Assembly: GCA_965178125.1 (NCBI GenBank)
Contig: OZ237752.1
Coordinates: forward strand, 930,001-994,000
Direction of reading: 5' to 3'
DNA from: Bilabrum cf. latius
Lineage: Eukaryota
Length of the DNA: 64,000 bases
Shown: piece after piece, positions 9,021 to 48,102 of the stretch
Layout of the letters: every line of letters begins with the position of its first letter
How positions within the stretch are numbered: the first letter of the stretch is position 1
Notes under the pieces: generated by a model
The model's database searches: none
Told to the model about the DNA's origin: nothing
Seen by the model: the letters and a program-made list of their open reading frames with translations, nothing else
Position numbers and translations under genes: made by a program

Positions 9021-12000
9021 ATGGAATCGCTTGCAATTGTTCCAGCTGATAAATCTGGCATTTTGGAGACGTTATTCTAGCGAGCGTCGGGGGGGTCTGG
9101 CGAGTGTAGCGCGGAGGGTGTCGTGAAGCTCATGCTGGATGCGGGTGCGACAGATGACAGAGAGGTTGCGCAAGACGCTATTAATACAACTATGACTTTG
9201 GTGCCAGGGGAGACTCTGAGCATGCACTGGTTTCCGGCAGCTGTTGGCGACGCGTTTCGTCGAGTCGTGTGCCCGTACGAGACAGCGTCGCGTGCTAGGC
9301 TGGTCGTAATGAAGAAATACTTGCTACCTCTTGCAACTAGTGGGCTGCAGCAAGCGAGCGATGCGCAGCCGCATCACTCGCTGGGCAGCCCAGGCGCAGC
9401 CGCTTTTCCCAGAGCCCCGGGATCTGCCAGAGGCATTACCACCGACGAAGCGAAGACCGGGCTTGCCGAAGGGTCTCCTCGCGGAATCGAGAGAGTAGCG
9501 TATCCTTCTGTCAGCTCCAGCGATGGCTCTGCGGGCAGCCAGCCCGCGCACGGAGCAGCCAGCATCGGCATGGAGGACGGGGGCGTGGAGGGCGGGTCCC
9601 ACGGCAGCCTGTCGCTGGCCGATTTGCGGAAGGAGCAGGACAGGCGCTAGAAAAGCAGGCGGCGGCTGCAGGCTCAGCTTAGAGAGCGCAAGCAGAGGGA
9701 GCAGGACCAGCGAAGGGCGGCTCAGGGGCAGCCTCCTGCTCGCCCTCTCGGAGCAGTTGCTCCGCGGGATGGTGGAGGAGGAGGAATAGCGCCCGGCGGA
9801 CCCGTCCCCAGGGCACTGCAGCTCTCCCGGAGCGCGGCCCGTGCGGAACCAGAGGCGCCGCGCAGCCTCATGAGTCCCGGCTCCCGCGCGATCGTGAGGC
9901 GCATGCAGCGGAGGAGGCAGCAGGACGCGAGGAGGGAACACAGCGAGGCGGGCATCGGGCCGGGGATGGGGGGGCCGCCCCTCGCAGGAAGTGGGCTGTA
10001 GTCGTCACACTTACAGACAGGCCGCACGCACCCCCGTGTTCCCCGAGCGCCCTCCCTGCCCAGGGTGGCCAGAGAGGGGGAGGCACTCGCCCAGAGGGCC
10101 AAAGCGGCCACCAGGGCAGCGGCCATCGCGGCGGATAGGGACCGCCTGGCTGCGTCGGCGGGGCGCGCGGGGTCCGGGTCCGGCCCGGTGGCTGGATCGT
10201 CCTCGATGCCTCCTCCTTCCTCCTCGAGGCGGCGCGGGGGCGGGGGGGACCCCCTGGCGGTGCGGCTGCTGGTGCGGGAGCTCTCTGCCTGGGTCGGTTC
10301 CGCAGCGCGCGGCGCCGGTGCCTTGGAGGCGCTGCAGGTGCCGGTGGGCCTGGATGCCGTGGCCAAGGTGTGCGTGTCGCTGGGGTTCTTCCCGCGGCGG
10401 TCGGCGGCTTCTGGCGCCACAGCAGGGAGCTTGGCAACTGGGATTGCGGGGCCGAGCGCGGGCTACGGCCAGCAGGAAGAAGACAATGGCAATTTCGATG
10501 ACACTGACGACGATGACGTGGAGGAACCATCCGACGCGAAGGAGAGGCAGCGGGACGGCGAGGCCCTGGCGGAGGTGTGGGCGGCGGCGGGGGAGGCGGC
10601 GCAGGACGGCAGGAGGGGGGCGGGTGCTGGCAAAGACGGAAGGGAGGATGACGAGCGCAAGGACGAGGACGGGGAGGGGGAGGGGGTAGTATCCGAGGTG
10701 CCGGCGTGGGCACTGGCGCTGGTGCTGGCGGGCGTGGTCGCGTCCGGAGCCCGTCTCGGGCAGGTGGCCCATGCGGGGGCCCAGCTGGACGCGGAAGCAG
10801 GCGTGCTGGGGCTGCTGCCTGGTCGGTCTACCAAGGGCAAGGGCAAGGGCAAGGGGGCCGGCCGCAGGGTCAGGAGGGGGCTGGGGAACAAGGGGGCCAG
10901 GGGCTCCCTGCTGCCGCTGGACCGACGCGCGGCCATGAGCGTGATGAGTGGAGGCGAGCCGGGTCCGGGCAAGGGCGGCGGCGAATCTCCCCGGAGTCGG
11001 TCCAGCCGAGGGTCGGTCGAGGAGCGCGACCAGGAGCATGGAACGGAGGCAGGTGACAGTGACAGCGACTCGGTCCGGCTGCGCGACATCGTGGCTCCCG
11101 AGCTCCCGGAGGCGGTCAAGCGCAGGCTGTACGCCTCCAGGCTGGCCCGCGGGCGCTACGGCAGGCCGGGAGGTGCGGGATCCGGCCGCCAGGGGGGCCT
11201 CACTGTGCATGCAGGGCCGGGAGGGGGAGGGAGCACTGGTCCTGCCCCGGAGGAGCGCGACCCGTCCGATCCCGAGCATGAGCGCCAGCTCACGTTCGAG
11301 CCCATGCTGTGCCGCAGGTCGCTGGAGATGGCGGACCGGGCGACTGCTCGCGTGGCGGAGGGCGTGCCGAGGGCACTGCTGCTGATGCGGTACCAGCAAG
11401 AGGTGGACGAGAGGCTGGAGGAGCAGAGGAGGCAGAAGATCGCGCAGGAGATGGCGGCGTGCACGTTCAGGCCAGCCACCAACGCCGGGGCCGGGGCCGG
11501 GGCCGCCCCAGCTGGTGCTGGTGGGGGCTCGTTGCCGCCGGGGGGAGGCCCCGAGGCTCGCTTCGAGCGGTTGCACGAGCTGCACGAGCAGAAACTGGCC
11601 AAGCAGCAGAGACTGCTCGCGGCCAAGCGGGCTAAAGCCGCCGAGGAGGAGGTGGAGGAGTGCACGTTCCAGCCCCTGACTGCCTCTGCGATCGGGAGGC
11701 AGGGGGCAGGCGCGGGCGGGCTCGTGGGGGGCGACGAGTCGATGGCTCTGGCCCTGCGAGCGGCGCAGCAGGCCCGCCCGCGGGGCCTGCAGACGCACCG
11801 TCGGCGCATGGAAAAGGCCCGGGTGCAGCTGCGGCCGCCGGGGGAGAGCGAGAAGCAGCTGCAGGCCATCGCGCAGGTGGCCAGAGGGCAGGACGGGCTC
11901 ACGAGGGTGTCTCCGTTCAAGCTGGGGACGGACAGGAGGGCCTCGTTGAGGAGGACCAGGGAACAAGAGGGTGGCGGGAGTGGAGAACAGGGGGGAGGGT

Positions 12001-12353
12001 GGGGAGCAGAGGGCGCGGGGCGCGGTACGTCTGGGGTACAAGCTAGGAGAGGTGATGGAGGGATGCGTGCCGGCGATGGAGCGCAAGAAACCCTTGGGAT
12101 CGGTTCGGCAGCAGGTCCCGCAGAGGGAGAGGCAGAGGCAGGCGGCGATACCCTTGATGAGAGCCCCACCGTGATTGTGGATCTGGTGCTTGGCGAGGGA
12201 GAGGAGGGTGTGGAGCGGGTGGTGCTGACCAGGCGGTCCGATCTGGACGCCGTGTCGGCAGCGCTGGGGAGGAAGCACGGGCTCTAGCCGGCCCTCGTGG
12301 GTGCACTGCGGTCCGCGCTCGGGAGGGAGCAGGCCAAGGCCTGGGAGGTGTGA
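9021..12353 (+). CDS. Hypothetical cytoskeletal/coiled-coil protein with CTFxP-type repeats
   Basis: ORFs 9123..9650 and 10065..12287 share one frame, which is continuous from ATG 9021 to TGA 12351 through TAGs at 9078, 9648, 9999 and 12285. LTFEP, ACTFRP and ECTFQP repeats. Confidence 0.7.
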
Positions 12354-12775
12354 TGCCCCAGGCGCGATTACAAAGCGATCGGATGTGCACAAAGCACCAG
12401 ATACAAAGCACAAGTTAGTCGGCAAAGTAGAGGATAAGTAGGTGCACAAATCCGATGCTGGTACCAGGTCTTTAGCCACATCAATTGGAGTCTCTTCCCG
12501 TCAGGCTAGCATAATTCGTGCTGCTCATACTGTGAGGGCTGCTCGGTGTCACACCATCTAGGTCAGAGGCAGCGATCCGACACTGCCCAACGCCTGCGAT
12601 CCCCCCCTAGCCACATCCCGCGGTAGGATAACTGCTTTCATGCAAAAGACTACAAAGCTAGCACGCCCCGGTAGGAGCGATATGGAGACTTTCGGCTCCC
12701 AAAGTCGGTATGGCGAGCACCTGTAGCGCCGTTCAGCCGTCCGGGGGGCGGAGAGGGGGAGCACGTCGTGCTGGA

Positions 12776-14209
12776 TCACAAATGAACAGTATCCATGTGC
12801 TTCTTGAGATGGCCTGCCTACCCGAAGCGCTTGTGGCACACGATGCACTCGTGATTGCGCTCCCCGAGATGCACCGTGCTCATGTGCGTCTTGAGACTGC
12901 CTGCCTCCCCGAAGCGCTTGTGGCACACGATGCACTCGTGATTGCGCTCCCCCAGATGCACCGTGCTCATGTGCGTCTTGAGACTGCCTGCCTACCCGAA
13001 GCGCTTGTGGCACACGATGCACTCGTGATTGCGCTCCCCGAGATGCACCGTGCTCATGTGCGTCTTGAGACTGCCTGCCTACCCGAAGCGCTTGTGGCAC
13101 ACGATGCACTCGTGATTGCGCTCCCCGAGATGCACAGTGGACATGTGCTTCTTGAGATGGCCTGCCTCCCCAAAGCGCTTGTGGCACACGATGCACTCGT
13201 GATTGCGCTCCCCCAGATGCACCGTGCTCATGTGCGTCTTGAGATGGCCTGCCTCCCCAAAGCGCTTGTGGCACACGATGCACTCGTGATTGCGCTCGCC
13301 CAGATGCACAGTGGACATGTGCTTCTTGAGACTGCCTGCCTACCCGAAGCGCTTGTGGCACACGATGCACTCGTGATTGCGCTCGCCCAGATGCACAGTG
13401 CTCATGTGCTTCTTGAGATGGCCTGCCCTCCCGAAGCGCTTGTGGCACACGATGCACTCGTGATTGCGCTCCCCGAGATGCACCGTGCTCATGTGCTTCT
13501 TGAGATGGCCTGCCTCCCCAAAGCGCTTGTGGCACACGATGCACTCGTGATTGCGCTCGCCCAGATGCACAGTGGACATATGATTCTTGAGATGGCCTGG
13601 CCTCCCGAAACGCTTGTGGCACACGATGCACTCGTGATTGCGCTCGCCCAGATGCACACCCAACACATGCCTTTGAAGCGACCTTACGCTCGACAGTATC
13701 TATCCGCACACCTCGCACTCATGCCCCACTCCCGCACTATCACCACTGGCATGTACCTCGTATGCTGTCCTCCTCTTCTTCTTCTCCTTTCCCACAGCGG
13801 GCTTGTCACAAGAAGCCTCCTTGGCGGTATGCTAGAGATCCGTTCGAGCACGCTTCTGTCCGATTTGAGTGCTCGGGCTATGTCTGCTAAGCCCACCGAA
13901 TTCCATCACAGAGCTGCTTGCCATCCCCGAGGTTGCGCTCGATGACGACGACCGGGGCTATTGTAGTGACTTCAAGTTGCTGTCATCCGGCCTACCTGCT
14001 AGTCCTGCACGAGATAGCATTGTGCGTCTCGCTGCTCCGCCAGTCCTCGATTCATTGCCGACCAGCCTAACCACCACATCGTGACTTGTAGTTGGTGCCT
14101 TCTACACATGCTCGTCATGGCTCTCCTCGTCGTCCTGCTCGTATTCACTATCGCTGCTGCTAACGAGGTCAATCACATCATCATGAGCTGATGCTGCCAC
14201 GGACGACAT
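12776..14209 (-). CDS. C2H2 zinc-finger protein (11 fingers; N-terminal SIM-like VIDLVSSSDSE and basic NLS-like KEKKKRR)
   Basis: One 477-codon frame from ATG 14209 to TGA 12776 with 8 in-frame TAGs (14102, 13958, 13832, 13700, 13340, 13079, 12992, 12818). Repeating unit HECIVCHKRFGxAG[H/S]LKxHMSTVHLGERN. Confidence 0.88.
12779..13657 (-). repeat. 87-bp coding minisatellite, 10 near-identical units (zinc fingers)
   Basis: The unit core gcttgtggcacacgatgcactcgtgattgcgctc recurs every 87 bp; for example, TAG positions 12818, 12992 and 13079 are spaced by multiples of 87. Confidence 0.95.
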
Positions 14210-14562
14210 TGCAAAGGAACGCACTTTTAAGATGACAGCAAATCGATATTTCTAACGGGTGTGTCAATGTGACACGCTTCCAGTCAACTAAGGGGTCTGA
14301 ATATCTTGCAGAAGGTACCCTGGTCCTCCCTTTCTCTCGCAAAGAATCGCGAACGATAGTCTGCTAGCCAACACAGCTGATTTATAGTGGCAATACGAAG
14401 AAGCCCGTGATTTTTTCGGAATTTAGCTGGAAGCAGGCAAGAAAAAGTTGCGGAGATCCGGTATGTCGCCAGCTTGGATGTTCCGCAATATGGCCGGGCT
14501 AAAAATGGCGCCGCGAAGCAAACCGAAACGAGCACTTATTAACACTGTGTCACTTGCCTGCC

Positions 14563-14931
14563 ATGCCCTACCCAACAAGCACCATATCTACGGGCACCCA
14601 TCGCGCGTCCGTTCCTCCACCGGTTCAATACCAGTGCAACATGCCTGCCCAACCGCCGAGTTGGCTGCAGAAGGCCTACTAGTACCTGTAGCCAAGGCTG
14701 CCCAGGACAACCCGTTCGTACACCCGTCATCTAAAGTCTATGTGCCATGGGCTGCAGCATGAGACCGCAGCGTCAGACTGCAAAGACAGTGTAGCTTGCG
14801 GTCACATCTGGGCGCAGCCCAACTGCGTGGCTCACTATCAGCCGCATCGCTTGCCGTGCTGCAGGAAGGCCTTCGACCTTGAGATGGACCTACTCTACAT
14901 CGAGCGGATTGCAGGCCGGCACCTCTCGTAA
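14563..14931 (+). CDS. Possible small hypothetical protein (122 aa)
   Basis: Open from ATG 14563 through two TAGs to TAA 14929. No recognisable domain, so it may be non-coding. Confidence 0.25.
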
Positions 14932-15172
14932 CATCCTCTGCCTCTGAGGCAGCACCCCATCCTACGAGACACCCATCAATGCCCCCCCCTTGAGCTGCTG
15001 CAGCAAGCGCACTGACACAGGTCCCTGTGCGACTGCAAGGCAGGCATCGGACGGGCTGCAAGCAAGCTCTCATGACAGTCACCTCATGAGTGCTGCCAGT
15101 GCGCCCACACCACGACAGTCAATCGCAGGGCGCACAATGAGCTGGCATAAGGTCACAGCAAATGTGATACGA

Positions 15173-15820
15173 TCATCGACCCCCCATTCCGCCCCTTGCA
15201 GCAACACCCCCTCCTCCTCCCCCCATCCCTCTCCCTCGTGCCGCGCCCCTGCCCGTCGTCCTACTAGAGGGACCACTGGTGGCACCCCTGCTGCTCTTCG
15301 CGGCGGCAGCGCCTCCTCCCGCAGGCATTGCTTTGGGAGCCTCTCCCATCGCCTTCCTGGACTTGGGCTTGAAGGGGATGCCCTCGAAGCCACCGGACGC
15401 CTGCTTGAAGGCAGGGTGGTAGTCGAACTCGGCCTCGAGCAGCGCAAGGCCGTTCGCGTGCTTCTCGACTGCCTTGTCGTACAGCGTGCCGATCTCGCCG
15501 GTCAGGGTGTCGTACTTGCGATCGAATGGGCCGATGCGCCGGTCGAACTCATCGAGCCACTCGCGTGCGTGCTTCAGGCGGAGCTAGGTGAGCTCCTTCT
15601 CGAGGCGAATCCGTTTCAAAATGGCGTTGTACGCTGCAAGGCCATCCCTGTCCGCCTTAATTTCATCCATTACTATGCTTAATCGCTGCTGGAGCTGGTC
15701 AATCACTGCTCCAAGCATTGCAAAATTCTGATTCATTTTGGCGTACTGTTTGTAGTTGACTTGCTTCTTGGCAGCCGGCTTTCGAACGCCTGAAGCTCCA
15801 CGTCCTCTCCCAGCTTCCAT
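15173..15820 (-). CDS. Hypothetical coiled-coil protein
   Basis: ORF 15584..15820 continues through TAG 15584 (EKELT*LRLKHAREWLDEFDRRIGPFDRKY...) with GC3-rich codons to TGA at 15173. Confidence 0.75.
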
Positions 15821-15966
15821 GGCAACAGGAAAGCAGCAGAAGGTCTATTTGCCGCTATTTATGTCTGAAAACGACGAATTTTCGGCTCGCGACCAACTCC
15901 GATTTATGCCTCACTCGCCAACGGAAACTCTGGCCGGTTGCATTGGAGTGTACAGGGCGCTACACG

Positions 15967-16762
15967 ATGCCGAAGAAGAAGAAGAAGGCCGCTGGTGATG
16001 GTTCTGAAATGGATGATGCAGCGAAGGTTGCCAGACTGACGCATGAAAACACTGCGTTGCGATTGCAGCTAGGTTAGCTTTGTTGCATCGGCAATCAGCC
16101 GCTGTGCAGCACACCTAGAGCGACTCCCAATTGTCACTTGTGCACCATCTGTCTCATTTCACAGCACAAAAGACATAGGATGCGCTGAAGGCTGAACGCG
16201 AAATGCGGGAACTCCGCAGTAGGGTGACAGAGCTTCGGTCCGACTTTCGCGAGACCGCCGACGATACTTTTGCCATCACGGCAGACATGACTAGGCAATA
16301 CAAAGCTATGGAAAAGAAGTTTCTTGATGATATTACCAAGCTGGAAGATAGGATACGCGCACTTGAGGACGAGCTAGGTGAGCGAGGCTGGACGGTCCGA
16401 ATCGATTGCTTGCGCGCACAGCCCAAGCCCAAGAACTGACACATATATGACCCTTCTTGCGCCCATGACTTGCAGCTGAGGCTCGCACTGCCTATGAGGA
16501 ACTTCAAGAGGAGAAGGTAGCCCTGTTGAAGGCGAAGGACGAGGAAATCGCGCTGCTCAAGGACAAGGCCGAGGACATGGCCGCAGAGTTCGCAGAAATG
16601 CTGCAGGAAACGCTCCGCAGGATGGCAGACAAGATCGAAATATCCGCGGCCAAGTGGGACGGGGACGGATCGGTCCCCGTCATCCAGCGAATGAAGGAAT
16701 TCACTCCATCGGCAGGCGGAGGCGCGAGCGCGGGGGGCAGCGGTGCGGGAGCAGGGACGTGA
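15967..16762 (+). CDS. CCDC153: CCDC153/DRC12-like flagellar coiled-coil protein
   Basis: Exons 15967-16072, 16165-16377 and 16476-16762. TFAITADMTRQYKAM and KDEEI...MAAEFAEMLQETL motifs. TAG at 16176, TGA stop. Confidence 0.75.
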
Positions 16763-16894
16763 CCGCCGGCGATGAGGCTCGGTTCTTCTCTTTGTGTGTA
16801 TTTCTGTCTTTGTAGATGCGATACGTCAGTACAGAAGATCAAAAGTGATCGTATTTTGGATGCGTTTTTGTTGTTGTTGCTGCCAGCATATCCG

Positions 16895-19800
16895 TCACCT
16901 CGGCACTCGCCTGCCTCGCCCACTGCTGCTGCTGCTGCCGCTGAGGCCCGCTGCAGCCCCCGCCCCGCCCTTTTCCTCCGCTTCTACCCTCCTTTTATAG
17001 CCTTCCTTTCTATCCTTCTCCATCGCCCCTCCCCTCCCCCGGGTGAACAGCCCGGGACGCTCATCCCCCGGCTGCCACCTGTCGTCCTCACGGGCAGAGG
17101 ACCGGACCGCCACGAGCAGAGGCGTGCCAGCAGGCGCCCTGCCCCCCGTGCCCTCAACGCTCCAGCTCGCCCAAGGCTCCTCTTCCTGCACACGGAGGGG
17201 CATGGGGTCGGCAGGCCCATAGAAGGGCTCCTCACCTGCGGCACACAGCAGGACGGCTTCCACGGACCTGGCTGCAGAGTACGAGATGGCGACATTCGGG
17301 TCCCTCGGAGCCGCCACCTTCGCGTCCTCGAAATCGCATGCGGCGCGCTCGAACTCGCGGAGGGCCCGCCACGACAGCCCCCTTCGGAACAGCGCGTGCG
17401 CGTTGCGCGGCTCCATCCTCAGCACCCGGGTGAAGTCAGCTGCCGCGGCGCGGTGACGGCCCAGCACCTGCCTGCACTTTGCCCTCTCGTGGTAGCAGCA
17501 CAACCGTTCCCTCCGGCTGTGCCACAGCGCAGAGGTGCCCGAAGGCGATGACACATCCTTGCCGCGCCGCACGGTCCCACCCCCCCCAGTCTTAGGCCCG
17601 AGCCCCATGCCCCTCTCACCCCCCCCGTCCTCACCCAAAGCCGCTACCTCCTCCTCCTCCCGTTCCTCCTCCCGTTCCTCCTCCCTGGCGTCCTCGTCAC
17701 ACTTGCGACCCACCATCAGCGCAGACCCGAAGGCCTGCTCCGCCTCGGCCCACCCGTCCGTGTTCGCGAGCGCAACCCCGAGGGCGTACCAGCACCTCGA
17801 CCCCAGCCGGGGGCCGGGCCCCTGCTGCAGCGCCAGCCTGAGGTCCTCCGCAGCGCCCTAAAACCTGTCCTGGTCATACCTTGCCAGCGCGCGCAGGTAC
17901 AGCAGGCGGGCCCGCTCCGCACCCTCAGCCGCGCGACCTCCCTGGAGCTCGGGGGCCTCTGCAGACGCGGCCGCCGGCAGCATGGCCGCGAGCCGCCGCT
18001 GCGCGCCCCCTTGTTCCCTGGGCGGGGGCGCGCTCAGAAGCTCGTGCGCGCCGCGCTCCCTGCCCCCCAGGGACGTGGACTTTCCCTGCTCGGCCCGCCT
18101 GTCGGCTCTCTCTGCCCTCCTGTCCGCCAGCCCCTGCATGGCCCTGTCTGCCTCGTCCCCCCCTGTGCCTCTGTGCGCAGCATGGCTCGCAACATCGGCA
18201 GCGCCGCCGTCCGCCCAGCCGCTTTGCTGCACCCGGACACCTTCCCGCCCGCCCCTGTCTCCCCCTTTTATCGTCTTCTTCTTAATCCCTTGCTTTCCGG
18301 CTCCTCCCACCCCGCCGAGCGCCGCATCCAGGTCCTCCTCGGCACGCCCCGGCTCGCCCACCTCCCGGAAGCACTGCGCCCTCCTCGCCAGGAAATGCGA
18401 GCTGCCGGGAGCCTGTGCCAGAGCCGCCGAGTACGCCTCCACCGCCCCAGGCACGTCACTCCGCAGCAGCTGCACGGTGGCCAGCCGATCCCACACCGCG
18501 GCTCTCGCGAAACCCGCCCTGGCCGCGCCCCTCAGCTCCCGCGCCGCCTCCTCCAGGCGAGGCGGCTCCAGGGCCAGCAGGCTCACGGCGCGGTGGTACC
18601 TGGTTTCCCCCCTCGCGGGGTCGCACTCCCGGGCCAGGTCAAAGTCATCCAACGCTTCCTCGTGCCGCCCGAGCGCCTGTTTCACCAGGCCCCGCGCCTC
18701 GAGCACACGCCGCGCCGCCGCGCCCGCCTCGGTCAGGGGGCGTCTCCGCCGCGAGGAGGAGAGCGGGGACCTGCGGGTGGAGGACCCCTTGTTCCCTGGG
18801 CCGTCCCCCGGGCTGGAGGGCGAACCCGGGGCGGCCCTTCTCCCGGCCCTCGCTCTGGAGGTGGCTCCCGCAAGATCCAGCGACACGGACGCTGCACGGG
18901 GCTCGGACGACCGGCCGTCCGTGTCCCTGAGACCGCCGCTTTCCCCCTCTTCATCCTCCCCTGCCTCCTCCCTCCTCTTTGCCTCTTCGATAGCGCGCTC
19001 CTCCTCGGCCTCCTCCTCCTCGTCCCGCTCCCGCTGTTCCCTGGCCTCCTCCGCGGTGCTGTCCGCAGACAGCTCCCTAGACACGGACTGGAGCACGGAC
19101 TCGGCTCTCGAGTTCCTCCCGAGGGCGTGAAGGGCGAGGCCCTCGTGGTAGCGGGCCGGCACCAGCCCCGGCCACGCCTCTTGTGCCCTGCGGAAGTGCC
19201 ACAGAGCCGAGCGCCACAGGCCCAGGGACTGCAGCGCCAGCCCGATGCTGTGCTGCTGCCTTGCCACCACGGCCAGCTCGTCATCTCGGAGTACTGCCAG
19301 GTCAGCGTCGAGAGGGGCGGCGCGCCTGCACCCCGCCGGGAGACGCTCCCCGTCCTCCCCTTGTTCGCTCGTGCGCGAGTTGGACAGGGGTGCGGCATCG
19401 CCGCCGTAGGCACCCCCACCCATCCCGCGGAGTCCGAGCCCCTCACCGGATAGGCCATCGCTAGCAGTGCCCGGGCTGGGGGCACTTTCTCCCTCCCCGA
19501 GCCCCAGCCTCCGCACCTCGTCCTCCGTGGGGAGGGGCACCTCCTCCTCCCAGCCCGCCTCCGGGGGCACCACCCCGTTGCCCATGCGCGCGTCCACCGT
19601 GGCTTCCAGGGTCCTCAGCACGGCCTGCTCGAGATCCTCCAAGGCACCCTCTGGGCTGCCCATGGCCAGCCTCACGTTGCCTCGGTGAAACCGAGCAGCC
19701 GCCGCCCCGCCCACACCCACGTCGTCATCCCCAGCGCCTCCCTCCTGGACCCCACTCGTCACACCGCCCCTCCCGGGCCGCTTGGACTCGGCCCCCACGG

Positions 19801-20917
19801 CCGCATCCAGGTCTGCCCTAGCGTCGTCCAGCCTGCGCATGTGGTACAGCACCAGACCGCGGTTGGCGAGAAAGGTGGGGTGCCCCGGGGCGGCATCCAG
19901 GGCCCTGGTCAAAGCGGCGAGGGCCTCCGTGAGGGAGCCGTCCTCGCACAGGGCCAGCCCAAGGGCGTTCCAAGCGGCGGGGGCCGCGCTGTCCACGGCC
20001 GTGGCAAGCCTTAGGTCCTCTGCGGCTAGGTCTCCCCTCCCCAGCTTGCGGAGGCAGGCCGCGCGGTTGAAGAGGGCGCGGTAAGCGAACCTTCCCTGGG
20101 GAACAACGGGGGGCGGGGCCTGGCGAGAGGGGGAGGCGGCTCCGGGGCCTGAGCTGGCAGTGGTGGACTACCCCCGTGCCCCCCCTGCGCTGCCGTGCGA
20201 TGCACCCTGCGATGGATCGGCTGCCCTGCCGTGCTGCCCGGGAGAGCCAGCCCCGGCAGCGGAACCGGCGCCGCGAGGGCGGTTCGACCCCGCCGCTGGG
20301 GCGGCGCGGCGGGGCGCCGCGGATCGCGAGCTCACCCGAGGCAGGCCCGCCGCATCGCTAAAGTCCCTGCAGGCCATCTCGAAGGCGCCCGTCTCGAAGA
20401 GCACGAGCCCGCGGCTGAAGTATAGACCAGCCACCGAGGGCCCGCCGTCGTTTCCGTCCTGCACGCCCGGGTGCCGGGGCCCGACTCCCGGGATCGAGCC
20501 CCGCAGAGAGCCCCTTCGAGGCGCCGACGACTGCCGCAGCGGTGCCGCCATCTCGATGGCTCGGGTCAGGTCCTTCAGGGCGTCTTGCATTCGTCTCAAT
20601 TTCCTGTGGCAGAGGCCCCGAGCCGAGTAGAAGAACGGATCCGTGTCGTCGAGGCGGATGGCGGCCGTGTAATCGACGCAGGCCACCTGCCACTGCTTCA
20701 AGGCGCGCCTTGCGTTGCCTCGCAGGAAGTAGTACCGAGCTACGCGTGGTCTCAGCTAAATTGCGGCATCCAAAATCTCTACAGCTCGCTCCGCACCTCC
20801 CTCCCTCCCCCCGCGCAGCTCGTCCAGAGCTTTCCTAAACAGGTCCATCGCCTGCCTATCGCGGACCTGGCGGTCTGCGGACGACTTTACCCCGCCCCTG
20901 CTAGGTTTACGTGGCAT
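16895..20917 (-). CDS. Large tetratricopeptide-repeat protein
   Basis: ORFs 20756..21067, 20168..20701, 17858..19996 and 16895..17716 are one frame separated only by TAGs (20756, 20168, 17858), two of them inside TPR units (DAAI*LRPRVARYYFLRG; YDQDRF*GAAEDL). TGA stop. Start codon uncertain. Confidence 0.85.
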
Positions 20918-21141
20918 TTTGCGCAATTCTTTCGTTATGTCGCCGATTTGCCGTGGTTGCGGCCGGAAAAAGCGCTGTTGCTGCTGGCGATCTACCGTTG
21001 GGTTTGGGTGCATTGCATGCAGGGAGGCCTCGAAAAGCCACGACTCGGAGCAACAGATCATCGTCATCGCGCAACATCAAAAACGCAGGCTGTTAGGGGC
21101 ATCTCGGCACGAGCGCAGCCAATCGATCCATGGATCCTGGA

Positions 21142-22295
21142 TCAGCCCTCCTTGCCCTCCTGCTCGGTAGCACGCGCTGCACCCCCCGTGGCAGCAACCT
21201 CCGCCACCGGCCCATCCACCTTGCCCTCCTCTGCCCCTGCCCCTGCCCCGCCCACCGCCGCTCCTCCCTTCTTCACGTGCAGCTCCACCGCCTCCCCGTC
21301 CAGCCTGTCCCCGTGCGCCTTGTTCCTCACGAACGGCCGCAGCACCTCCCGCCGCTCCCTCAGGCCCTCGTAGGGGTCCCTCCCGCACACCATCGTGTAG
21401 TCGCCGAGGTCGCCCTCTCCCTTCACGTTGAAGCGGCCGTCGTTCGTCCAGGGATTCAGGCTCTGCGCGCTGCAGTAGTGCATCACTAGCGCTCGGCGGA
21501 AGTAGGACCCGCCCCGGTTGGGAAGCGAGCGGTGCAGCAAGTACCCGTTGAACAGGATCGCAGAGCCGCTCGGGACCGGGGCGCACACCCAGTCAGATTC
21601 CTTGTACGAATGGCCGTAGCTTTCACCGCCGTGGGCATATCGCGCGTCCGTGGTGGGCTTGTTAGGCCAGATGATGCCGGGCCGGTGGGACCCCGGAATG
21701 ACCCAGAGGCAACCGTTTTCTTCCGTCGCGTCGTCCAAAGCGATCCATAATCCGCACAAAGATCGATCTCGCGTAGGAATGTATGTCTCATCCTGGTGGG
21801 GGGCTTGGCCCTCGACTCCACGCGCCTTGTAGAATGCCATCGATTGCAGCAGTTTGACGTTCTCGCCCACCGTGGCTCGGAGACTGCGGCGAAACGGCTC
21901 GGACTTGCATTAAAAGGCGTTTGCATTATCAATAGGACAACTGTGCCCGCTACAGCGTTGTGGATCCAGGCACTATAATGCTACGCTGGGAATCGACGAG
22001 TTGCACTTGCTCACGCATCTTTGATTCCGTCATGCTCTGCTGCGACGCCCTTAAGGTGCTCGCTTAGTTTGTGAGGAAAATGGATAGCTGCTATGCCTGA
22101 CTGCACCTCATCGTCAGTCTGGCCCGCACATCGAGGAGATACGCCCTCGATTTCACCGTAGGAGCCGTCCACGACAGCGAGCATCTCAGCCAGAACCTTA
22201 TTAACGCCGTCCTTTTCGAGCAAATTCTCCAAAATAACAAATCCATCTCTGTCGTACTTCTCTTTGAGCTCAGAGAACCTGTCCGGGACTGCCAT
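21142..22295 (-). CDS. Phytanoyl-CoA dioxygenase (PhyH)-family Fe(II)/2-oxoglutarate dioxygenase
   Basis: [37 protein letters not shown] and LLHRS..N...RR motifs. Intron 21884-22014. TGA stop. Confidence 0.92.
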
Positions 22296-22430
22296 GCCTG
22301 TCACTGTGCATAGACCCAGGGGATGGGGGGCTCTGCATGGACCGGAACCGAGACGCCCGTGCACAACATCAGCAAATGCAGCAGCATGGCGATCTTCGCC
22401 GGCAACTGGTCAACCGAGACATACTAACAT

Positions 22431-23806
22431 TTATCCCTCGCGGATCTGCAGGTCACTAAGGGCTGCCGCCAAGCCCTCGGCACTGGGCTGCTTGGCCACG
22501 GCGTGGCACGGCAGGCCGGCCTCGAGCAGTGCTCGCTCCGTGGTAGGGCCAATCGCGACCAAATACACGCTTCCAAGCACTGGAAGTATCCCTTCGTGAC
22601 TTGACAAGGGGTCGCTAGCAGTGCTAGGGCTAGTACCCGCGCGCAGGTCTTCTGCTGTACCCATCGCTGTGGTTTGGCTTCCCGTATCGGCAGCTGACGG
22701 AGTGCAGGGCTTAGAGGATATGCCGCCTCTGCCTTCACTGCTTCTCGCCGTAGAAGCGCCCGCCTGTGCTCCACCAGCACTAGCACTAGCACCACTTGTA
22801 CCAGCACCAGCTCTTGCGACAGCACCCACCAGACCCCCTAGCCGCTCAATCACCCCTGATGCAACAACCCCAGCGACCGCACTCGGGCTGAACAGGCAGA
22901 GGGCAACTGCACCAGGATCAGAGCCAGCGACACCAGGATCAGAGCCACTCTCGCCACCCGGACCACTGAAAGCTGCACCTTTGCCAGCGGGTCCCGTCGC
23001 GCCCTCCTCGGAATCAACGCAACGCTCCGCTGCGCACCGCAGCACCCCCGCCACGGCCTCTTCCAGCAATTTCTCTGGGGGGCGGGGCAGAGTGCGGTAG
23101 CAGACTGCCTTCACGACTGGCACACCTGCGTCTCGCAGCGCCTCAGGTATCTCTTTGCGGTGCTTCTATCCGCAAAACAGAAGTACAGGATTAGGACTCA
23201 GCCTGCTGCCTATTTCTTCTGCTGGCGTCTGGACATGGGCTTCTGCAGCTGAAGGGCTTGCACGCCCGGCCAATGGGCTGCCGACTGCGTGCGCAACAAC
23301 CCTTGGTGCAAGGGCACTTGCGCTACCAGTATCAGCTCCTTCGATGATGGCGTCTTTGATGACTGGCAGGATTCCAGACCGGAGCACAGACTCTGTATAT
23401 GGCCCAACAGCGAATACGTGCATGTGCGTGTCTACAAACCAGCCTTGCACAGCTGCAGGGTGACTCTTTACGATCTTAACGAGCTGTGCAGCCCCTCGGG
23501 GACTTGTGACAACTACGGATGACACCCGAAATCCTTCCAATTGCTTCTCGATACATGTGAGCACGTCCGGCAACCTGGATGGTTCGGTACTGAGCGTGCA
23601 AAGGTGGCACACTCTCCATCCCCCAGCACACAAAAGCTCTTCATACTTGTCTGCAAACTCGACGCGTCAAATGGAAGATGGAAAAAAACACTACAGATTT
23701 CTGGATATGCCGCATTTGTATATCGAATATCCACAGGCACCATCTCACCGTCTGGTGGCGATAATTTCGCAATAATTGCGATGTTCCTCAACTACTTGCC
23801 ACTCAT
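22431..23806 (-). CDS. UROS: Uroporphyrinogen-III synthase (HemD/UROS)
   Basis: DKYEELL, VVVTSPRG, FAVGPYT, LLFCG*KHRKEIPEAL...VCYRT, LFSPSAV, AIGPTTERAL and KQPSAEGL. Intron 23651-23748. TAGs at 23792 and 23166. Ends with TAA at 22431. Confidence 0.88.
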
Positions 23807-24237
23807 AAGAGATATTTACTGTATTTTACATGCGCTTCATGGAAGCTATTCACTAGATATTCCATAAAATGGCAAAGTGAATGCACTCATTATTATTCCG
23901 AATGGATTTAATGATTTGTAACGTGCATTCGTGAATGAAATCAGAATTAATCCGGCACCGTTTGCAAGCGCGGTATTTTTGGTCCATCGATCCCTGACCA
24001 GCATGTCCGATCAGCCTGCAGCGTGAGATCTTGTGCCTTTTGATGCTGCCTGCCTCACAAATGCCAGTTTGTATCGGCATTGAAGGTACAGCTCGCTTCT
24101 GCGACGAATACTGCCACGTTGATCGGTTTCGAATAATCTGCTCGGTCTAGTGTTTCTTGCAATCGATCGCACCCCGGTCGGATCTGGCTACACGTACTGC
24201 ATACCAGTTGAATACCGCACTTTCGCGCCGCAGTCCA

Positions 24238-27149
<2,912 letters not shown>

Positions 27150-27396
27150 TGCGGTCACGGTGGACGGACACTCGCGGTTGAAGAGATCTGATGGGGTTCG
27201 TATTGGGTGTGTGAAGGTGCACATAATTGAACGCAGCGTTTGCCTGTACCACGTCCCACAATACACACGCCACCACCATACCATGAACAGAAAAGTGCAA
27301 GCAAACGTGCTCTCATCACACAGCCATCGCGTTCGGTCCGACGGGGCTGTCGTCACAAGCCACGCACTGCATCGACATTGCGTCTAGCGAAGCGTC

Positions 27397-28755
27397 ATGA
27401 TGTTCGTGGTACAGTACTTTCTGATGCTGCGGCACGGCCGCACGCAGAGCGGCACTATGCGGATCCGACCATCCGACGGCGAGAAGACGCTTCGCCTGTC
27501 TCACCTCAAGGCATACTTGCCGATCAAGGGGCCCAGCGAAGCTGGTTTCTTCTTTAGAGCCAAGAAAAATCTCGCGGACGGAGGATTCGTTTGGCTAGAC
27601 CTGCGCCACCCGAGCGATGCCGTTCCATTGGTTGGCGACAAGAAGCAAGCTGCGGTCATCAAGGTCACGCCGCTCTTCGAAACGCCGGTAGATCCGACTA
27701 GGGCGCCGTCACTGTATCCGTTCACTCCCGAGGAATCAGAGTCAGAGAGAGCAAGGATTCGAGACCAGCGCGGACTGCCTCCGCTTTCCGTTGCAGATGC
27801 GAGGGCCGTACATGCCTCGTCCGAGGCCGAGGGCCTGCGGCCAGAGGAGGCCGAAGACGAGGAAGAGCTCCAGGATAGCGATGCAGTGGCCGCAATGAAA
27901 GCAGGGGCTAGCGCTGCGTCGTCAAAGGGCGGGGCCTCGTCGGGAGCGGGCGGCTCTGCGGGCGAGGCGGCGAGCTCCGGCGCCGGCGCGGGCGTGGGCG
28001 ACCAGCTCCGCAGCGGACTGAGCATCGTGAGCAAGCAGAGCCGCAAGCTGGGCACCTCCCTCATGGGTTTCTTCTCCCGCGCGGCCACTGCCGCTCAGGA
28101 CGCCCTGGAGGGAGGCTCGCTGCCCAGCGACATGGCGCAGGTGAACCTCCAGGTGGTGGGGGAGGATGCAGCGACAAAGTTCCGGCCGAACCATGGGCCG
28201 CACGAGTCTCTCCTGGAGAGGGTTTGGGACGGGCTGTACCCCGACAAGGCGGGGAGCTGTGTGCGGGTGGGGCCGCAGTGGGTGCGGGCGGGCTTCGGCA
28301 GCGAGAACCCTGGGGATGACGTGGACTCTGTGCTGACTCTAAAGTGCCTCGTCTACCTTGTGGAGAGGCACGGGGACGTGGCGAGAGGGTTCGTGAACCT
28401 TCACCGGGGCAAGGAGGACGACGGGAGCAAGCGCCTCCTGCTCGGTCCCACGGCGGGGCTGCTCGCCAGGGAGCTCACGCAGGCCCTGTCGCTTCCCTGC
28501 CCCGCGGAGGAACTGGCGGGCAGGCGCGCCGGGTACTATGGCCTGTTCGAGGAGGAGGACGGCTTTTTCGAGCTGCATTTCTTGCTCCTGACTGCCTTGC
28601 ACCGGATCTGGGTGCGAAGGAAAGCGAGCCAGTCGTAGCTGCAGGCAGTCTCCAGGGAGGCGCTGGCACGCGCCGCCGTTTGGCTGGATGAGGGTCCGAA
28701 GGGGGTGGAGCACCTGAGGGCAGTTGTGAGCCAGCTAGAGAGAGTGACGCTGTGA
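27397..28755 (+). CDS. DIX-like domain plus ELMO/CED-12 domain protein
   Basis: N-terminal FFFRAK...FVWLDL...VP...VIKV (DIX-like). C-terminal HESLLERVW...QWVRAGF..ENP..D...LKCLVYL (ELMO-like). Reads through TAG 28636 to TGA 28753. Confidence 0.7.
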
Positions 28756-28909
28756 CGCAGTGACTGCTTGCGGGGCGTCTGGACGCAGCTCAGACCCTTT
28801 CTTGTGACATGTGAAGCAATAAATGTTGGTATTATTTCGAGTGCGTCTCATGGTAATCAAGAAATCGGCGAGTGGCACGAGTGCCGCATATTTTGGAAAT
28901 ATCTGTCTG

Positions 28910-28956
28910 TGTCATCAAGCCGGCAAGCCCTCCTACTCGTCCAACTTCGTACCGCC
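28910..28956. repeat. 47-bp direct repeat, copy A (copy B at 31319-31365)
   Basis: tgtcatcaagccggcaagccctcctactcgtccaacttcgtaccgcc versus tgtcgtcaggccggaaagccctcctgctcgtccaacttcgcaccgcc; 42 of 47 positions identical. Confidence 0.85.
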
Positions 28957-29097
28957 TGGGCCCCGCGGCGACTTTGCGGTTGCAACCTATTTTGAGGTTA
29001 GAACCGGTCGAAGCCCAAGGTGAGCAGCCTGGGCCACCAAGATCGGCTACCTCCTTTGGCACACTTTGACTCGAACACCTGAAGAAATCGTATCAAG

Positions 29098-30696
29098 ATG
29101 GCTAGCGTTGCTGTAGCAAAGGTATCATCTACCAAACTATCGGATCATGAAGGCGAACAAAGCTCTGCTGAGAGCAGGCCAGCGGTGAGGGTGTTTTGCA
29201 GACCACGAGTGTTCCGAGGGCTCGATTTCTCCGTGTTCAGCCGGTAAGTTGGAACAAATCTGCGACGAAACGTTCAATATGATTTCCTTCCATCCGCAGG
29301 GACCTCGCTCGGTATGGGAAGAGCTACCTCCTGGCAGCTGGTGAGTCTTTTGTTGTGACACGTAGAAGCAGCACTCATGCTCCTTATCAGTTGAGTCCAG
29401 AACCGGGCGTTTTAGCGCAGAGTTCGCGGTGCGATTCGCCATCGAACGTCGGACACAACATCTAACTCCCCCCATCAAGCCGTATGTTATCGCTTGAATG
29501 CAGTTCCGAGGGTTGCGATCGAGCAATTCCAACCGTGCGACTGCGAAGCTCAACCCTCCACCTTTCCCCGCTGTTCCTGCCCGGTTCACTTCTCTCGCAG
29601 GGTGGCCTCCATGTACCAAGGCCGCGCAAAGTGCATGGAAGAACTATTTGATCACTAGATGACAGTGCTTGAGGAGCAGCTGGCCGAGCTGAGCACCCCC
29701 GACGCCAAGGCGACGTATGTCGAAGTCGGAAGCGGCACGAACGAGGCAGGAGCGCGGCTCCTCGGGAAGAGCAAGACGTTGGGCCACTACGTTGGCCTTG
29801 ATTTGGCTCGTGCATTTCTCGAGTGGTCCCAGCGAACGTATCCGCAGCTGAACGGGCCTTCCAGCACGCTCATCCACGGGAACGCCGTGCACCTGGCAGA
29901 GTCCATGGCCGGCCTCGTCCCCGACTCGATGTGGAGCAAGCCCCGCCTCATGGGCCTGGTCATGAACACGATTGGCGTGCTGCCGGACTGCATCCGCCAG
30001 GACGTCGTGCGTGAGTGCGTGCTGTGCGCCGGGACGGGCGGGACGGTCCTCGTCGGATGCTGGTGGAGCGGGGCCTTCAAGCGCGGGGTCGAGGAGTTCT
30101 ACAAGCTCAACCCGGAACTGTGCGGCGACATCACGGACGACATGGTGGACCTTGAGAAGGCCACCCTGCTGAACCCCAAGACGGGGTACAGCTCCCAGTG
30201 GTGGGCCGAGGCCCGGGTGCGGAACCTGTTCGAGGGCGTGGTGCCCGACGCCGACATCGAGATCAGCACAGCGGGCGTAGGCATCTTCGCCAGGGTGAAA
30301 GTGACGGAGCTGCACGTGGCCGCCGCGGCGTCCCTGCGCCCCGACGGGGCCAAGGCACTGTCCAAGTACCCTGGGTACGCCAAGGGCACCTAGGGGGCGA
30401 CGGAGCTGGTGGCGGACGTTGTGGCGGCCGACGCTGGGTCGGGGGCGGGTGCCGGTGCCAAGGCACCTGCTGCAGGCTCCGAGGAGCCAGACACGGAGGA
30501 GGAGGACGAGGCGACGGATGCCGGCTCCAAGGGCACGGGCAAGGGAGTGGAGAAGAACCGAGGGGCCGAGATCGTGCCGCCCATCGGCGGTGCCTCGTCC
30601 AAGGACAAGTTGAAGGGGAAGGCCGGCGCGTGGGGCTAGGGCGTGGAGGAGGAGGGAGGGGAGGGCGTGCTGTCAACCGCGGATGGGATGCAGTGA
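29098..30696 (+). CDS. Class I SAM-dependent methyltransferase-like protein
   Basis: Exons 29098-29184, 29300-29340 and 29601-30696. YVEVGSGT motif I, YVGLDL, IHGNA, MNTIG. TAGs at 29656, 30391 and 30637. Ends TGA TGA. Confidence 0.8.
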
Positions 30697-31323
30697 TGAG
30701 GGCAGGGTAGAGCAGCTGCTTGTTGAGGGCGCTCGTGTGCGCTGCCAGCTGCAGGGACACTACTACTAGTACTAGGCCTAGTAGGCCTAGTTCCAGTAGA
30801 CTTTTTAGTCCCAAGTCAGTGGCAGAAATGCTCCCCCGTGCGCGCCGTTCGTTCGATGTCGCGCGCGCGCCTCAGACCCACGGGTCTCGCCCATTGCTTG
30901 TCTTTCCTTCTTCATCCTCCCATCCTCTGATTCTTCACCTTTCGGACCACAGTCGGCTGCCAGCCGGTGCTGCCCGGAGCCACTCGTGACGCCCAAGCCG
31001 CGGCCAGTACTATGCCCGGCCTCTCCCATTTTCTATCCCTCCTACAACCTATCACAATGCATCCCTCGCCTTAGCTGGGGCCGAGCAGCAGGCGTCAAGG
31101 CCGGGTCATGGCGAGATCCTCCACAAACCAGGCATCCCCTATGGTAACCGACGACCTGGTTGTCGCTGCCGACGCGAGGCTTTCATTTCCCTAGTGACTC
31201 GATTGATCTATTATCTGTAGATTGTACATATATCGACTTCCAACGCATCAGCTCGCACAACGATCTGAGATCTGTGGTTCATGTCTGCCGACCGTCTGCT
31301 CTCAAGTATCCGCCGGCGTGTCG

Positions 31324-34300
31324 TCAGGCCGGAAAGCCCTCCTGCTCGTCCAACTTCGCACCGCCCGTTGCATCTTTGCTGCGACCCTGTGAAGCCCCAG
31401 CATCCAGCCCGGGCCCCTCATCTTCTGGGCCCTCCCCTTCGCCGGCGGCGGCGCCGCCCCCCTTCCGGTTGCCCTTCACCTAGGGCACGGGCGGCTCCCC
31501 GTCCTTGTCATTGGCCAGCACCAGGGGCTTGGCCTCCTCCGAGGTGATGAAGGGTCGGTACACGTTCGCCTCCAGCACCTTGAACACCTCTAGCAGCACC
31601 TCGTCGAACAGCACGCTCAGCCGATGCAGCCTCGCCAGCGTGCTTCCAGAGACGCGCATCCACCTAGACCACTGCCGGGGCGCGGCCGGGTCCCTCAGCA
31701 AGGCAGCCGCCTCGTGCGCGCCCTCCTTCCTGAGGCGCCTTGCCCTCCGCGCCCTCCGCTGGGCCTCTTTGGCCACTTGTTCCCTGCTCACCAGCCCGAA
31801 GTATTTCTCAAGCAGCTGCTCCACGGCTCCCCGCTGCTTGCTGCTCACGTTCACCTCCAAGGGAGAGCCTGTGGCGAGGTACCACCCCAGCGCGTGCGCG
31901 GCGAGGAAACGGGCGTCCAGCAGATCCACGAAACACTCCCTCGACTGCTGCTGCTGCTGCTGCTGCCCCCGGCCTTGGCCTTGGCCTTGGGCCAGCTGCA
32001 GCGACAGCCCGGGCAGGCGTGCATCCGGTGCTCCCGCGCCGCCGTTGCCGGCAGGCTGCGTCGCACCTTCTTGCCCTTGCCCTTGTCCTTGCTCCTATCT
32101 GCTGCTGCTCTCTCTCGCCGCCAGCTCCAGCCCGTGCTTTGGGTAGCTGGGTGGGGATGCAGGGGGCGACAGGGACCTGCGGGGCTGCTCCTCCTCGCCC
32201 CGGCGACTATCTTTAGCTACGGGTCTCTGCCCGGTTCCAGTAGCTGCCTTCCCGAGATCCTTCTCCCCTCTCTCGTCACCTAACTGCTGCTGCTGGTCCT
32301 AGTGCCTCTGCGCCCGAGGAGCGGCCCAGGATGGATCGCGTGATGGCTGGTGCACTGCACGGTGGTGCACGCGCACGTCCACCCCACCCGCAGACTCTGC
32401 AGACGCGCGGTCGGTGCTCACCGCGGGGACCCCGCCGCTGCCACCGCCGCTGCCACCCCTGCTCCTCCCGTTGTCTTCGCCCTCGGACTTGTGCTCTAGC
32501 TCCTGCTGGCCCTCGCAAGCTTGCGCGGCTCTGCTCACACCCCTCGCCGTGCCATCGACAGACTCGTTGTCCGGCAGCTCCGGCACGTCGCTGGCCCTCT
32601 TCCTCCCCGGCAAGCCTGCCGCCTTGTTCCCTGGGTCTGGGTCCGGGCCGCCGGTAGCACCGTCGGCATGGGGCGCGTGCATGCCATCCTGCGGATGACG
32701 GGTAACAATTCCATCGGTGGACCGTGGCTAAAGCGGCACGCCCGGACCGGATGGCAGCCCCGCCGCGACCAGCTCCGCGGGACTGCCCCTGCCGCTGCTG
32801 GACAGATCCCCACCGCTGCCGCCGTGCGGCCGACGCAACTCCATGTCGTCGCCAGTGTCCAGCCCGATGCTGTGCTGCCCCCCTGGCAGCCGCTCCACGA
32901 CGATGGACCCGATGGACCCCCTCTTTGCCCTCGAGAGAGTCCCATCCGTGGCGCTCCCGTCCCCCACGCTGCTGCCCCCGTCCCCCCTCGGCCCAAGCAC
33001 GTCTTCGACCGTGGTGCCGCCGCCAGCAGCCAGCGCCTCCTCGATCGCAGCAGCCGCGGCAACCGCCGCAGATACTCCGCTCTCCATCAAACTGCCCCTA
33101 GCCCCCGCCCCCGCCCCCGCCCGCGAGCCGACACCACTGCCTGCCACCCGCAAGGGTACACGCGCCGTCTGCGGTCCATCCATGGCCGCACCCAGCCCCA
33201 GCCCCAGCCCCTGTCCCTGTCCATGTCCCTGTCCCTCCGCCAGCCCAGGTCTCATGCCGGACCGCTCCAGAGCCTTCCCCTGGCTCCTGCTCCTGCTCCT
33301 GCTGCTGGCCTCGGGTCTGCCTCTCGCGTTTAGCCTACTCGTGCGCGTCCCAGCATACCTGTCCGGGGAGGCCTCTCCCGCTCTCCCATTCGATCCATGC
33401 TACTGCTGCTAGCTGGGTACCTTGAGCGAGTTGAAGCTCGAGGCACGCACCACCTCCACCGCTTCGCTGGGCTGTGACTCGGTTTCCGATCCGATCTATG
33501 ATGCCCCGCGGTGCGCGTGCACGACTACCTCCACGGCATCTTGCCCCTGCCCCTGCCCCTGCCCATCGCTGCGGGCCAACGCTTGCTAGTCTGCAGCGAC
33601 GCCGGGCGGTTGGACGTACGAGTGCCGTTTCCAGGCCGACTGCCCCGGGCCTGGCGTGTCGCTGCTCTGCTTGCTGCTGCTGCTGCCGCTGCCGCTGCCG
33701 CTCTGCGAGCTCGAGATGGAGTTCATGCTGAGCCCCCTCTTGTTCCCCCACTTACCCTTGCCCCCCGACACCGACATGACCTTCTTGAGGGCGTTGGCTC
33801 TGGCCTTCTGCCGCGCGGCCTGCAGCCCATTGCTGGGAGTGTCGCCGCTGCTTGCTTCCTTACCGTTCGTTTCCTGCCGACCGATTTGGGACGGGCTGCC
33901 GTCGGTCCGCCCGAAGGCAGACGCTTTTTGCAGCTGCTCCCGCTTCGAGGCCTCCCTCGCCAGCCTCTCCCTGACCCTCTGCGAGGACACCTGCATCATC
34001 TGTTCCCTGCGGAAATGGGAGGCCACCATGCGCATCAGGCGGGCAAGCACCCGCTTGTACATGCGCACCACCAGGTAAAAGTCCAGCAGCTCGGGGCACA
34101 GCTGCCGACGGGCGTACGACCGCAGCAGGCCCACGCCGGCCGGCTCCTGCAGCATGAACTTGAGGGTCGCCACTTTGGCCACCTGACGGTGGTCGGCTGC
34201 CTCCACGCGGGCGCTCTGCCTGCTGTTCTCCGGCTCTGGCATGGACACGGTGGAGGCCAGCCGGGTAAGGTCCGGGTCCGCCTGCGCCACGGCGTACCTC

Positions 34301-41947: not shown

Positions 41948-42093
41948 GCAGGCTACGGCCCTTATCGCTTCTTTAAATCCTTTCATTGGCATTCGTGTTT
42001 TGACTTAGCTATTTTTTGACCTGTTTGGTCGTGCTTGATAGGCAGTGCTTCGCGATGATTTAAAATCAAAACACTTAATCATGTCAAGCCACC

Positions 42094-47527: not shown

Positions 47528-47970
47528 ATGATTATCCCGGTTCGATGCTTCACATGCGGCAAGGTGAGCAGCGCTCACACTTGCTGTCGCCCTGGACTTA
47601 TGCTGTGACCATTCATTCCTCGCCCATTTGTGATGCTCGTATGATTTTGTGCAGGTAGTCGGCAATAAGTACTAGGCATATTTGCGAATGGTTATGGATG
47701 GGACGACTGAGGCGTGAGACTGTTTGCTCAACTTTCACTTCGTGATCCGTATGGGCTCTTCTACACAACGTGCCCCAGTTGCAATCTGACAGTGCTTCGA
47801 TCTCGATACTACGCAGTGACGCGATGAATAATTTGGGACTGGACAGGTACTGCTGCAGGCGAATGGTATGCACACACGTTGACCTCATTGACCAGCTGCT
47901 GCAGTATTCGACGCTTGCGAAGAAGCCCACGGGAACGGAGGCCGCCAGCGGTGCCGGTGCCGGCCGATGA
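47528..47970 (+). CDS. RPB10: RNA polymerases I/II/III subunit RPABC5 (Rpb10)
   Basis: [21 protein letters not shown]...[33 protein letters not shown]. Introns 47564-47654 and 47714-47816. TAG at 47673, TGA stop. Confidence 0.96.
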
Positions 47971-48102
47971 TCACTGGGCGTGAATTGAATCGACATCCAG
48001 GAACTTTAAAGTGTGCGATTGTTAATCGTTTTGTGTACCCCCTATGCATCATCGAGTTCTCGTCACTGGAAGGGCGCTGCTCGTCCTGCTCCTCTAGCTC
48101 AC

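Follow-up and report, generated by a model that had tools for sequence, protein, structure and literature searches.

In the 64,000-nucleotide stretch of DNA analysed here (the window), UAG is a sense codon, and we put the probability at about 0.8 that it is so while UAA and UGA both serve as stops. Judging from the sequence contexts in which it occurs, UAG is most likely decoded as glutamine. The dominance of TGA among the stops is probably due to GC bias, and TAA is likely a rare but functional stop, which ends the UROS gene. The initial annotation had proposed that UAG and UAA are decoupled, a proposal supported by the codon statistics, in which TAG is tolerated in frame and TAA is excluded, together with one RNA-supported gene that ends in TAA (Table 1).

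The window is gene-dense and intron-poor, with a GC content of 58-69% in 4-kb windows. With TAG read as sense, the genes recognised encode mitochondrial EF-G, a C2H2 zinc-finger array, a TPR protein, a PhyH dioxygenase, UROS, CDC48, an ELMO-domain protein, a methyltransferase-like protein, an RGS-like membrane protein, a Sec1-family protein, RPB10, an RNase Z-like metallo-beta-lactamase, ribosomal protein L39, an RBBP6-like DWNN/U-box protein and a WD40 protein. Several low-complexity proteins without a family are also present, as is a three-exon coiled-coil gene that we take to be DRC12-like. Contigs from sequencing runs were compared with the window over positions 12000-31999. Two of these runs, X5 and X6, are termed RNA-like on the basis of GT..AG joints and a poly(A) end in their contigs, no run being recorded as RNA; X5 and X6 contigs skip GT..AG introns at 16071-16162, 16376-16473, 21884-22014 (-), 24023-24233 and 24392-24852. 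The start codon of CDC48 (24234-24391 and 24853-27149, +) is carried by a small exon upstream, and a 461-nt intron lies between this and the main exon; the 5' leader contains the further intron at 24023-24233. Introns start with GTGAGC in the cases read. The best database matches of CDC48 are at most 77% identical, those with names being mostly stramenopiles, and in a CDC48 tree the window sequence forms a long branch outside the clade of oomycetes and ochrophytes. The best explanation for the window is nuclear DNA from a flagellated eukaryote whose genome is rich in GC, densely packed with genes and poor in introns.

A recurrent 9-mer, GGGAACAAG, is found in 21 copies in the window, all of them inside coding frames and 20 of the 21 on the sense strand; 13 of the 21 sites are preceded by CA. 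Every reading frame is represented among the copies (8, 9 and 3), and the 9-mer is therefore a nucleotide- or mRNA-level signal rather than a peptide motif. A related pattern has 28 matches, compared with 5.3 expected. The recurrent peptide PGNK was considered as a trace of read-through 5' splice sites and rejected, the underlying pattern being GGGAACAAG, which has no GT.

Table 1. Positions in the window of the features discussed in the text.
Feature	Positions	Strand	Evidence or remark
UROS, candidate TAA terminator	22431-22433	-	Spanned by contigs of X1, X5 and X8, with 0 other letters
UROS, last (large) exon	22434-23650	-	HEM4 match; unspliced RNA-like contig; N-terminal exon(s) further upstream
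In-frame TAG, codon 167 of the open UROS frame	23166-23168	-	Within unspliced RNA-like contig
First in-frame TGA after the UROS TAA (stop if TAA is read through)	22410-22412	-	7 codons on
UROS 3' UTR with TAA as the stop (106 nt or more)	22325-22430	-	X5 record 11 reaches 22325
CDC48, TGA stop	27147-27149	+	Poly(A) loose end after 27248 in X5, ~100 nt past the TGA
Ribosomal protein L39, TGA stop	55394-55396	-	Ribosomal_L39, E = 1.2e-20; profile position 41/42 reached 2 residues before the stop
In-frame TAG, RPB10 exon 2	47673-47675	+	GT..AG exon borders; exon 3 matches Pfam RNA_pol_N, E = 2.3e-10
In-frame TAG, DWNN domain exon of RBBP6-like gene	55825-55827	+	DWNN, E = 3.3e-6, TAG translated as Q
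In-frame TAG, codon 308 of C2H2 zinc-finger array	13340-13342	-	Other repeat copies have CAG here
GGGAACAAG, example sites	10884-10892(+), 18788-18796(-), 32623-32631(-), 39941-39949(+), 58645-58653(+)		

Codon usage was examined in a curated set of 20 coding sequences (15,981 codons), delimited as frames open between TAA or TGA stops. In-frame TAGs are spread over 15 of the 20 sequences, and TAG is as frequent in frame (63 triplets) as in the +1 (65) and +2 (76) frames, which indicates that it is neither avoided nor selected against as a codon. The corresponding counts are 0, 234 and 188 for TGA, and 0, 20 and 35 for TAA. At least three further in-frame TAGs occur in small genes that were not pooled, namely RPB10, the DWNN exon and the gene at 7876-8610(-). 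Four of the pooled sequences (G01, G04, G15 and G20) have neither a known family nor RNA support; leaving them out lowers the count to 51 TAGs and does not alter the conclusion.

It is extremely improbable that TAG has not been reassigned and that these in-frame TAGs are merely read-through introns, pseudogenes or assembly errors. High GC does yield long open frames that are spurious, on either strand, genuine GT..AG introns are present, and some long ORFs are fusions of coding with non-coding stretches. Yet TAGs lie within exons of RNA-like contigs, both in the unspliced contig of UROS and in the spliced three-exon DRC12-like transcript, and within regions matched by Pfam families (DWNN and the UROS frame). 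Such an explanation is also at odds with the presence of TAG at the out-of-frame rate in three quarters (15/20) of the coding sequences, where the reading frames run on for hundreds of codons beyond it, and with the DNA contigs of other runs on this stretch, which carry no other letters.

The assignment to glutamine draws on the company that TAG (here #) keeps, which includes the Q-rich repeats KA#AHAQAQA, KS#SQS, QP#SQPQ, GSG#GSGPGSGQG and S#QQ#H. Codon 308 of the zinc-finger array is TAG in the window and CAG in the majority of the other repeat copies: the A at position 13342 (+ strand) is replaced by G in 231 of 302 depth units in X1 and in 361 of 504 in X5. Within the window's own array this position alternates between E, R and TAG, and glutamate fits some sites; the TAG site of RPB10 presumably corresponds to E or D in relatives. 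No TAG was found in a strongly conserved homologue column. The array itself (12776-14209, -) is a high-copy family, with a summed contig depth of ~30-100x that of its flanks in the DNA run, and of its eight in-frame TAGs four share a single repeat position (E or R in other units of the window, CAG in the run copies). An exact 30-mer of the multi-copy repeat matched 0 metagenome contigs.

Internal TAA codons are absent from the 15,981 codons of the curated set. The initial annotation had reported about 68 TAGs and not one TAA in frame, and the curated count, 0 against the 63 pooled and at least three unpooled TAGs given above, bears this out. It had also cautioned that high GC3 would make TAA rare even as a sense codon. 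Pooled over all curated sequences, codon pairs ending in A and G are used at 115 CAA to 569 CAG, 228 GAA to 1090 GAG and 84 AAA to 461 AAG. If TAA were used relative to TAG as CAA is relative to CAG, 12.7 internal TAAs would be expected (63 x 115/569; P(0) = 3e-6). The expectation rises to 14.2 (P(0) = 7e-7) with the median A:G ratio, 0.225, over 14 codon boxes. The absence of TAA is not explained by high GC3, because even proportional use with the lowest ratio of the 14 boxes (CTA/CTG, 0.074) predicts 4.7 (P(0) = 9e-3). The five most biased genes, with a CAA:CAG ratio of 5:132, suggest on their own that such a comparison has no power, but the bias of the pooled set (115:569) is milder.

These numbers bear on a code in which UAA and UAG are both sense, as in UAR=Gln codes, TGA is the only stop, TAA is missing through the scarcity of A-ending codons, and UROS ends at the TGA behind its TAA. 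Such coupled reassignment is the commoner kind in eukaryotes, according to the portion of PMC5304391 available to us, and in the five most biased genes it would indeed leave TAA very rare. The pooled expectations speak against it, since zero TAAs were seen where 12.7 (from CAA:CAG) or, at the lowest ratio, 4.7 should have occurred, at probabilities of 3e-6 to 9e-3. We consider a shared glutamine meaning for UAA and UAG unlikely, and return to it below in connection with the UROS gene.

The curated sequences being delimited by TAA as well as TGA, the zero count holds only if no TAA interrupts a coding stretch, which was checked separately. Open frame extends for 60 codons or more on each side of 43 of the window's 296 TAA triplets; on inspection each of these lies in an antisense frame, in the wrong frame of a known gene, in an intron or in an intergenic stretch, and none joins two coding stretches. 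A scan of coding potential found coding sequence on both sides of 0/296 TAA, 22/678 TAG and 1/1258 TGA triplets, the lone TGA, at 52186(+), being taken for an antisense artefact opposite the gene at 51744-53339(-). The check has little power for genes of low GC3 such as UROS, and the model behind the coding-potential scan, having been trained on the five most biased genes, proved so stringent that even the UROS TAA went unflagged as a terminal one. TAA is shunned in frames just like TGA.

Three other candidate TAA ends were rejected. The TAAs at 48007(+) and 4776(-), flagged as terminal, belong to non-coding or antisense frames, and the long TAA-ended ORF at 10014-12500(-) is the antisense of the gene at 9021-12353(+), a Pro/Arg-rich junk sequence that matches 0 Pfam families.

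The single gene that ends in TAA is UROS. The letters tta on the forward strand at 22431-22433 read TAA on the minus strand, where the frame 22434-23666 ends in ...AALSDLQIREG immediately before it. This frame matches the Pfam family HEM4 with E = 9.3e-27 and 94.1 bits (cut-off 27.5), its two ends covering profile positions 1-110 and 175-230 of 231, with long low-complexity inserts separating the HEM4 segments. Scanned alone, the last 69 residues match positions 175-230 of 231, finishing 11 residues before the TAA. The observation of the initial annotation that the frame closes with TAA is thereby confirmed, HEM4 being complete 11 residues earlier, a position compatible with the C-terminus expected for the family. 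As to the composition of the gene (22434-23650, -), the inserts between its HEM4 segments are rich in Gly, Ala and Ser, similar inserts being present in the RNase Z-like gene (48103-51048), and its GC3 of 0.53 is the lowest of the curated set, with neighbours at 0.63-0.93.

The TAA letters recur without any listed difference in the contigs of X1 (DNA, 13616-31935), X8 (DNA) and X5 (RNA-like); run X1 may itself be the source of the window sequence. The UROS TAA is not an assembly slip. The RNA-like contig X5 record 11 covers 22325-23650 with no splice, and the RNA-like contig of the neighbouring gene begins at 22295.

What follows the TAA was examined up to the in-frame TGA seven codons past it, which the initial annotation had correctly pointed out as a caveat. 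The six codons in between, TTA, GTA and TGT among them, fit a non-coding composition 11- to 90-fold better than a coding one (log10 likelihood ratio 1.06-1.95); a non-coding score this high is reached by only 1.25% of six-codon windows within UROS. That these six codons look non-coding is one of two weaker arguments for termination at TAA. The HEM4 C-terminus fits either end, the TAA or the TGA seven codons on, and reading through to the latter would likewise yield a plausible UROS. A search with the UROS protein returned three weak matches (E of 4.7e-5 or worse) and no close relative in the database.

Several features of this gene are those expected if UAA were glutamine as well: its GC3 makes UROS the likeliest place for a rare A-ending codon, and a TGA stands seven codons further on, the codon that ends 20 of 21 genes. 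On that reading, however, the sole in-frame TAA in some 16,000 codons would have landed by chance within the last eight codons of its frame (about 8 in 414 within UROS), and the codons that follow it would be coding, which they do not resemble. Nor is a TGA close behind the UROS TAA remarkable in itself, the next in-frame stop being at most seven codons away after 3/16 TGA-ended genes. The chance position that a sense TAA would need is the second of the two weaker arguments for TAA as the UROS stop.

Across the window, 21 complete 3' ends were tallied, of which 20 are TGA, one is TAA (UROS) and none is TAG. The tally combines 17 TGA ends and one TAA end from the curated set with RPB10, L39 and the gene at 7876-8610(-); a possible small exon ending in TGA at 4928 was left out as uncertain. 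The TGA of mitochondrial EF-G, like that of L39 (Table 1), falls at the end of its profile, and CDC48 ends in ...DLYG, which we take to be the usual ending of the family. Back-up stops stand close behind TGA in the methyltransferase-like gene (30694-30699, +; one codon), in G20 (55027-55035, +; two codons) and in G15 (42079-42096, -; five codons); an enrichment of tandem stops might be expected if TGA were leaky.

The initial annotation had offered the ORF at 14563-14931 as a second TAA-ended example, which we find unconvincing as a gene: it matches 0 Pfam families, has an odd composition and two internal TAGs, and lies under a low-depth RNA-like contig, with nothing to show that it encodes a protein. 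That contig (14550-15163, +) lies over a stretch without a convincing open frame; it may represent non-coding RNA, part of an untranslated region or carried-over DNA in the run. Direct evidence for termination at TAA is thus limited to one 3' end among 21, with a back-up TGA seven codons later.

A further reading of these ends is that TAA is effectively unassigned or context-dependent, being near extinct under GC pressure and poorly read either way, with the UROS end leaky and backed by the TGA. Its use at 1/21 ends, its absence from the inside of every frame and the presence of that back-up TGA would all suit such a state, and context-dependent stop codes are known (PMC4967479, as far as the accessible part of that paper goes). 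Nothing in the window requires this reading, and a rare ordinary stop would give the same data; UAA is moreover a normal stop in other organisms that have reassigned UAG alone, in the parts available of PMC5304391 and PMC11687900. A TAA without a settled meaning is accordingly improbable next to a TAA that is simply a rare stop. The same codon serving as both sense and stop, as in Condylostoma or Blastocrithidia, was not encountered: no 3' end needs TAG (n=21) and no TAA is in frame, in a window too small to exclude rare cases.

The likely route to UAG as sense and UAA as stop, along the lines that the initial annotation had set out, has two parts. A tRNA-Gln with anticodon CUA would arise by one mutation from the CUG isoacceptor, and would pair with UAG and not with UAA. 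Where CAG is preferred, here five to one, the CUG isoacceptor should dominate, which would make it a natural source of the CUA tRNA. In parallel, eRF1 would lose recognition of UAG and keep that of UAA and UGA. A suppressor with a CUA anticodon is given as the reason that UAG can evolve apart from UAA in the accessible portions of PMC5304391 and PMC11687900. Neither partner was seen in the window: ARAGORN, and Rfam at gathering thresholds, found no tRNA gene in it, and the eRF1 family had no match among the window ORFs scanned, which were part of all ORFs. More speculatively, and with rather less than even odds, GC pressure in a hitherto unreported, non-ciliate lineage may have driven UAA and UAG towards extinction, after which UAG was captured for glutamine, UGA became the near-sole terminator and UAA was left as a nearly vacant stop. 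If true, this genome would come close to a natural one-stop-codon code, and would show codon capture at work on each of the two UAR codons separately.

UAA and UAG nearly always share a meaning, a rule to which few lineages are exceptions. Each independent case tests the two causes proposed for the coupling, namely wobble by a tRNA with a UUA anticodon and the recognition of both codons by eRF1, and this one would supply a new eRF1 variant for the study of stop-codon discrimination. For practical purposes, gene prediction in this genome should treat TAG as sense and TAA as a stop.

The coupled arrangement, NCBI table 6, is found in many ciliates, in dasycladalean and other ulvophyte green algae and in hexamitid diplomonads. 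These UAR=Gln codes resemble the present one in having UAG as glutamine and TGA as a stop, but they also use UAA as glutamine, whereas here internal TAAs number 0 against 4.7-14.2 expected and one gene ends in TAA.

A separate meaning for UAG, with the same assignments as NCBI table 15, has a closer parallel in the fornicate Iotanema spirale. In its nuclear code UAG is glutamine and both UAA and UGA are stops (PMC5304391, in the part available to us). As here, in-frame UAG alone is found in that organism, with no convincing in-frame UAA or UGA reported in that part of the paper. The route proposed there, a UAG-specific tRNA together with an eRF1 weakened for UAG, is the one that we infer for the window, where tRNA and eRF1 are unseen; the Iotanema eRF1 carries a T32G change in its GTS motif (same source and portion). 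The two differ in their stops and in their composition. UAA is the predominant terminator of Iotanema according to the same part of PMC5304391, whereas TGA ends 20/21 genes here and TAA 1/21, and the window is GC-rich, at 58-69% in 4-kb windows. The source of the window is not an anaerobic fornicate, since it encodes mitochondrial EF-G and a haem-pathway enzyme.

Other lineages have likewise reassigned UAG alone and retained UAA as a stop. In the accessible parts of PMC5304391 and PMC11687900, UAG is leucine in the rhizarian exLh and leucine, glutamine or other residues in phyllopharyngean ciliates, with UAA kept as a stop; the amino acid thus differs from that proposed here in several of these rhizarian and phyllopharyngean lineages. 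Phyllopharyngean genomes have a GC content of 27-54% (PMC11687900, same portion), in contrast to the GC-rich window. No GC-rich or stramenopile or stramenopile-like case of nuclear UAG=Gln came up in the literature searches, though one may already have been published. A code that splits off UAG alone is already established as a kind; what sets the window apart is its occurrence in a GC-rich genome with TGA as the near-sole terminator. Published cases of UAG-only reassignment have UAA as their main stop, as far as the available portions of those papers describe them, and a GC-rich, TGA-dominant case, if real, would show that the split between UAG and UAA can arise from the opposite compositional direction.
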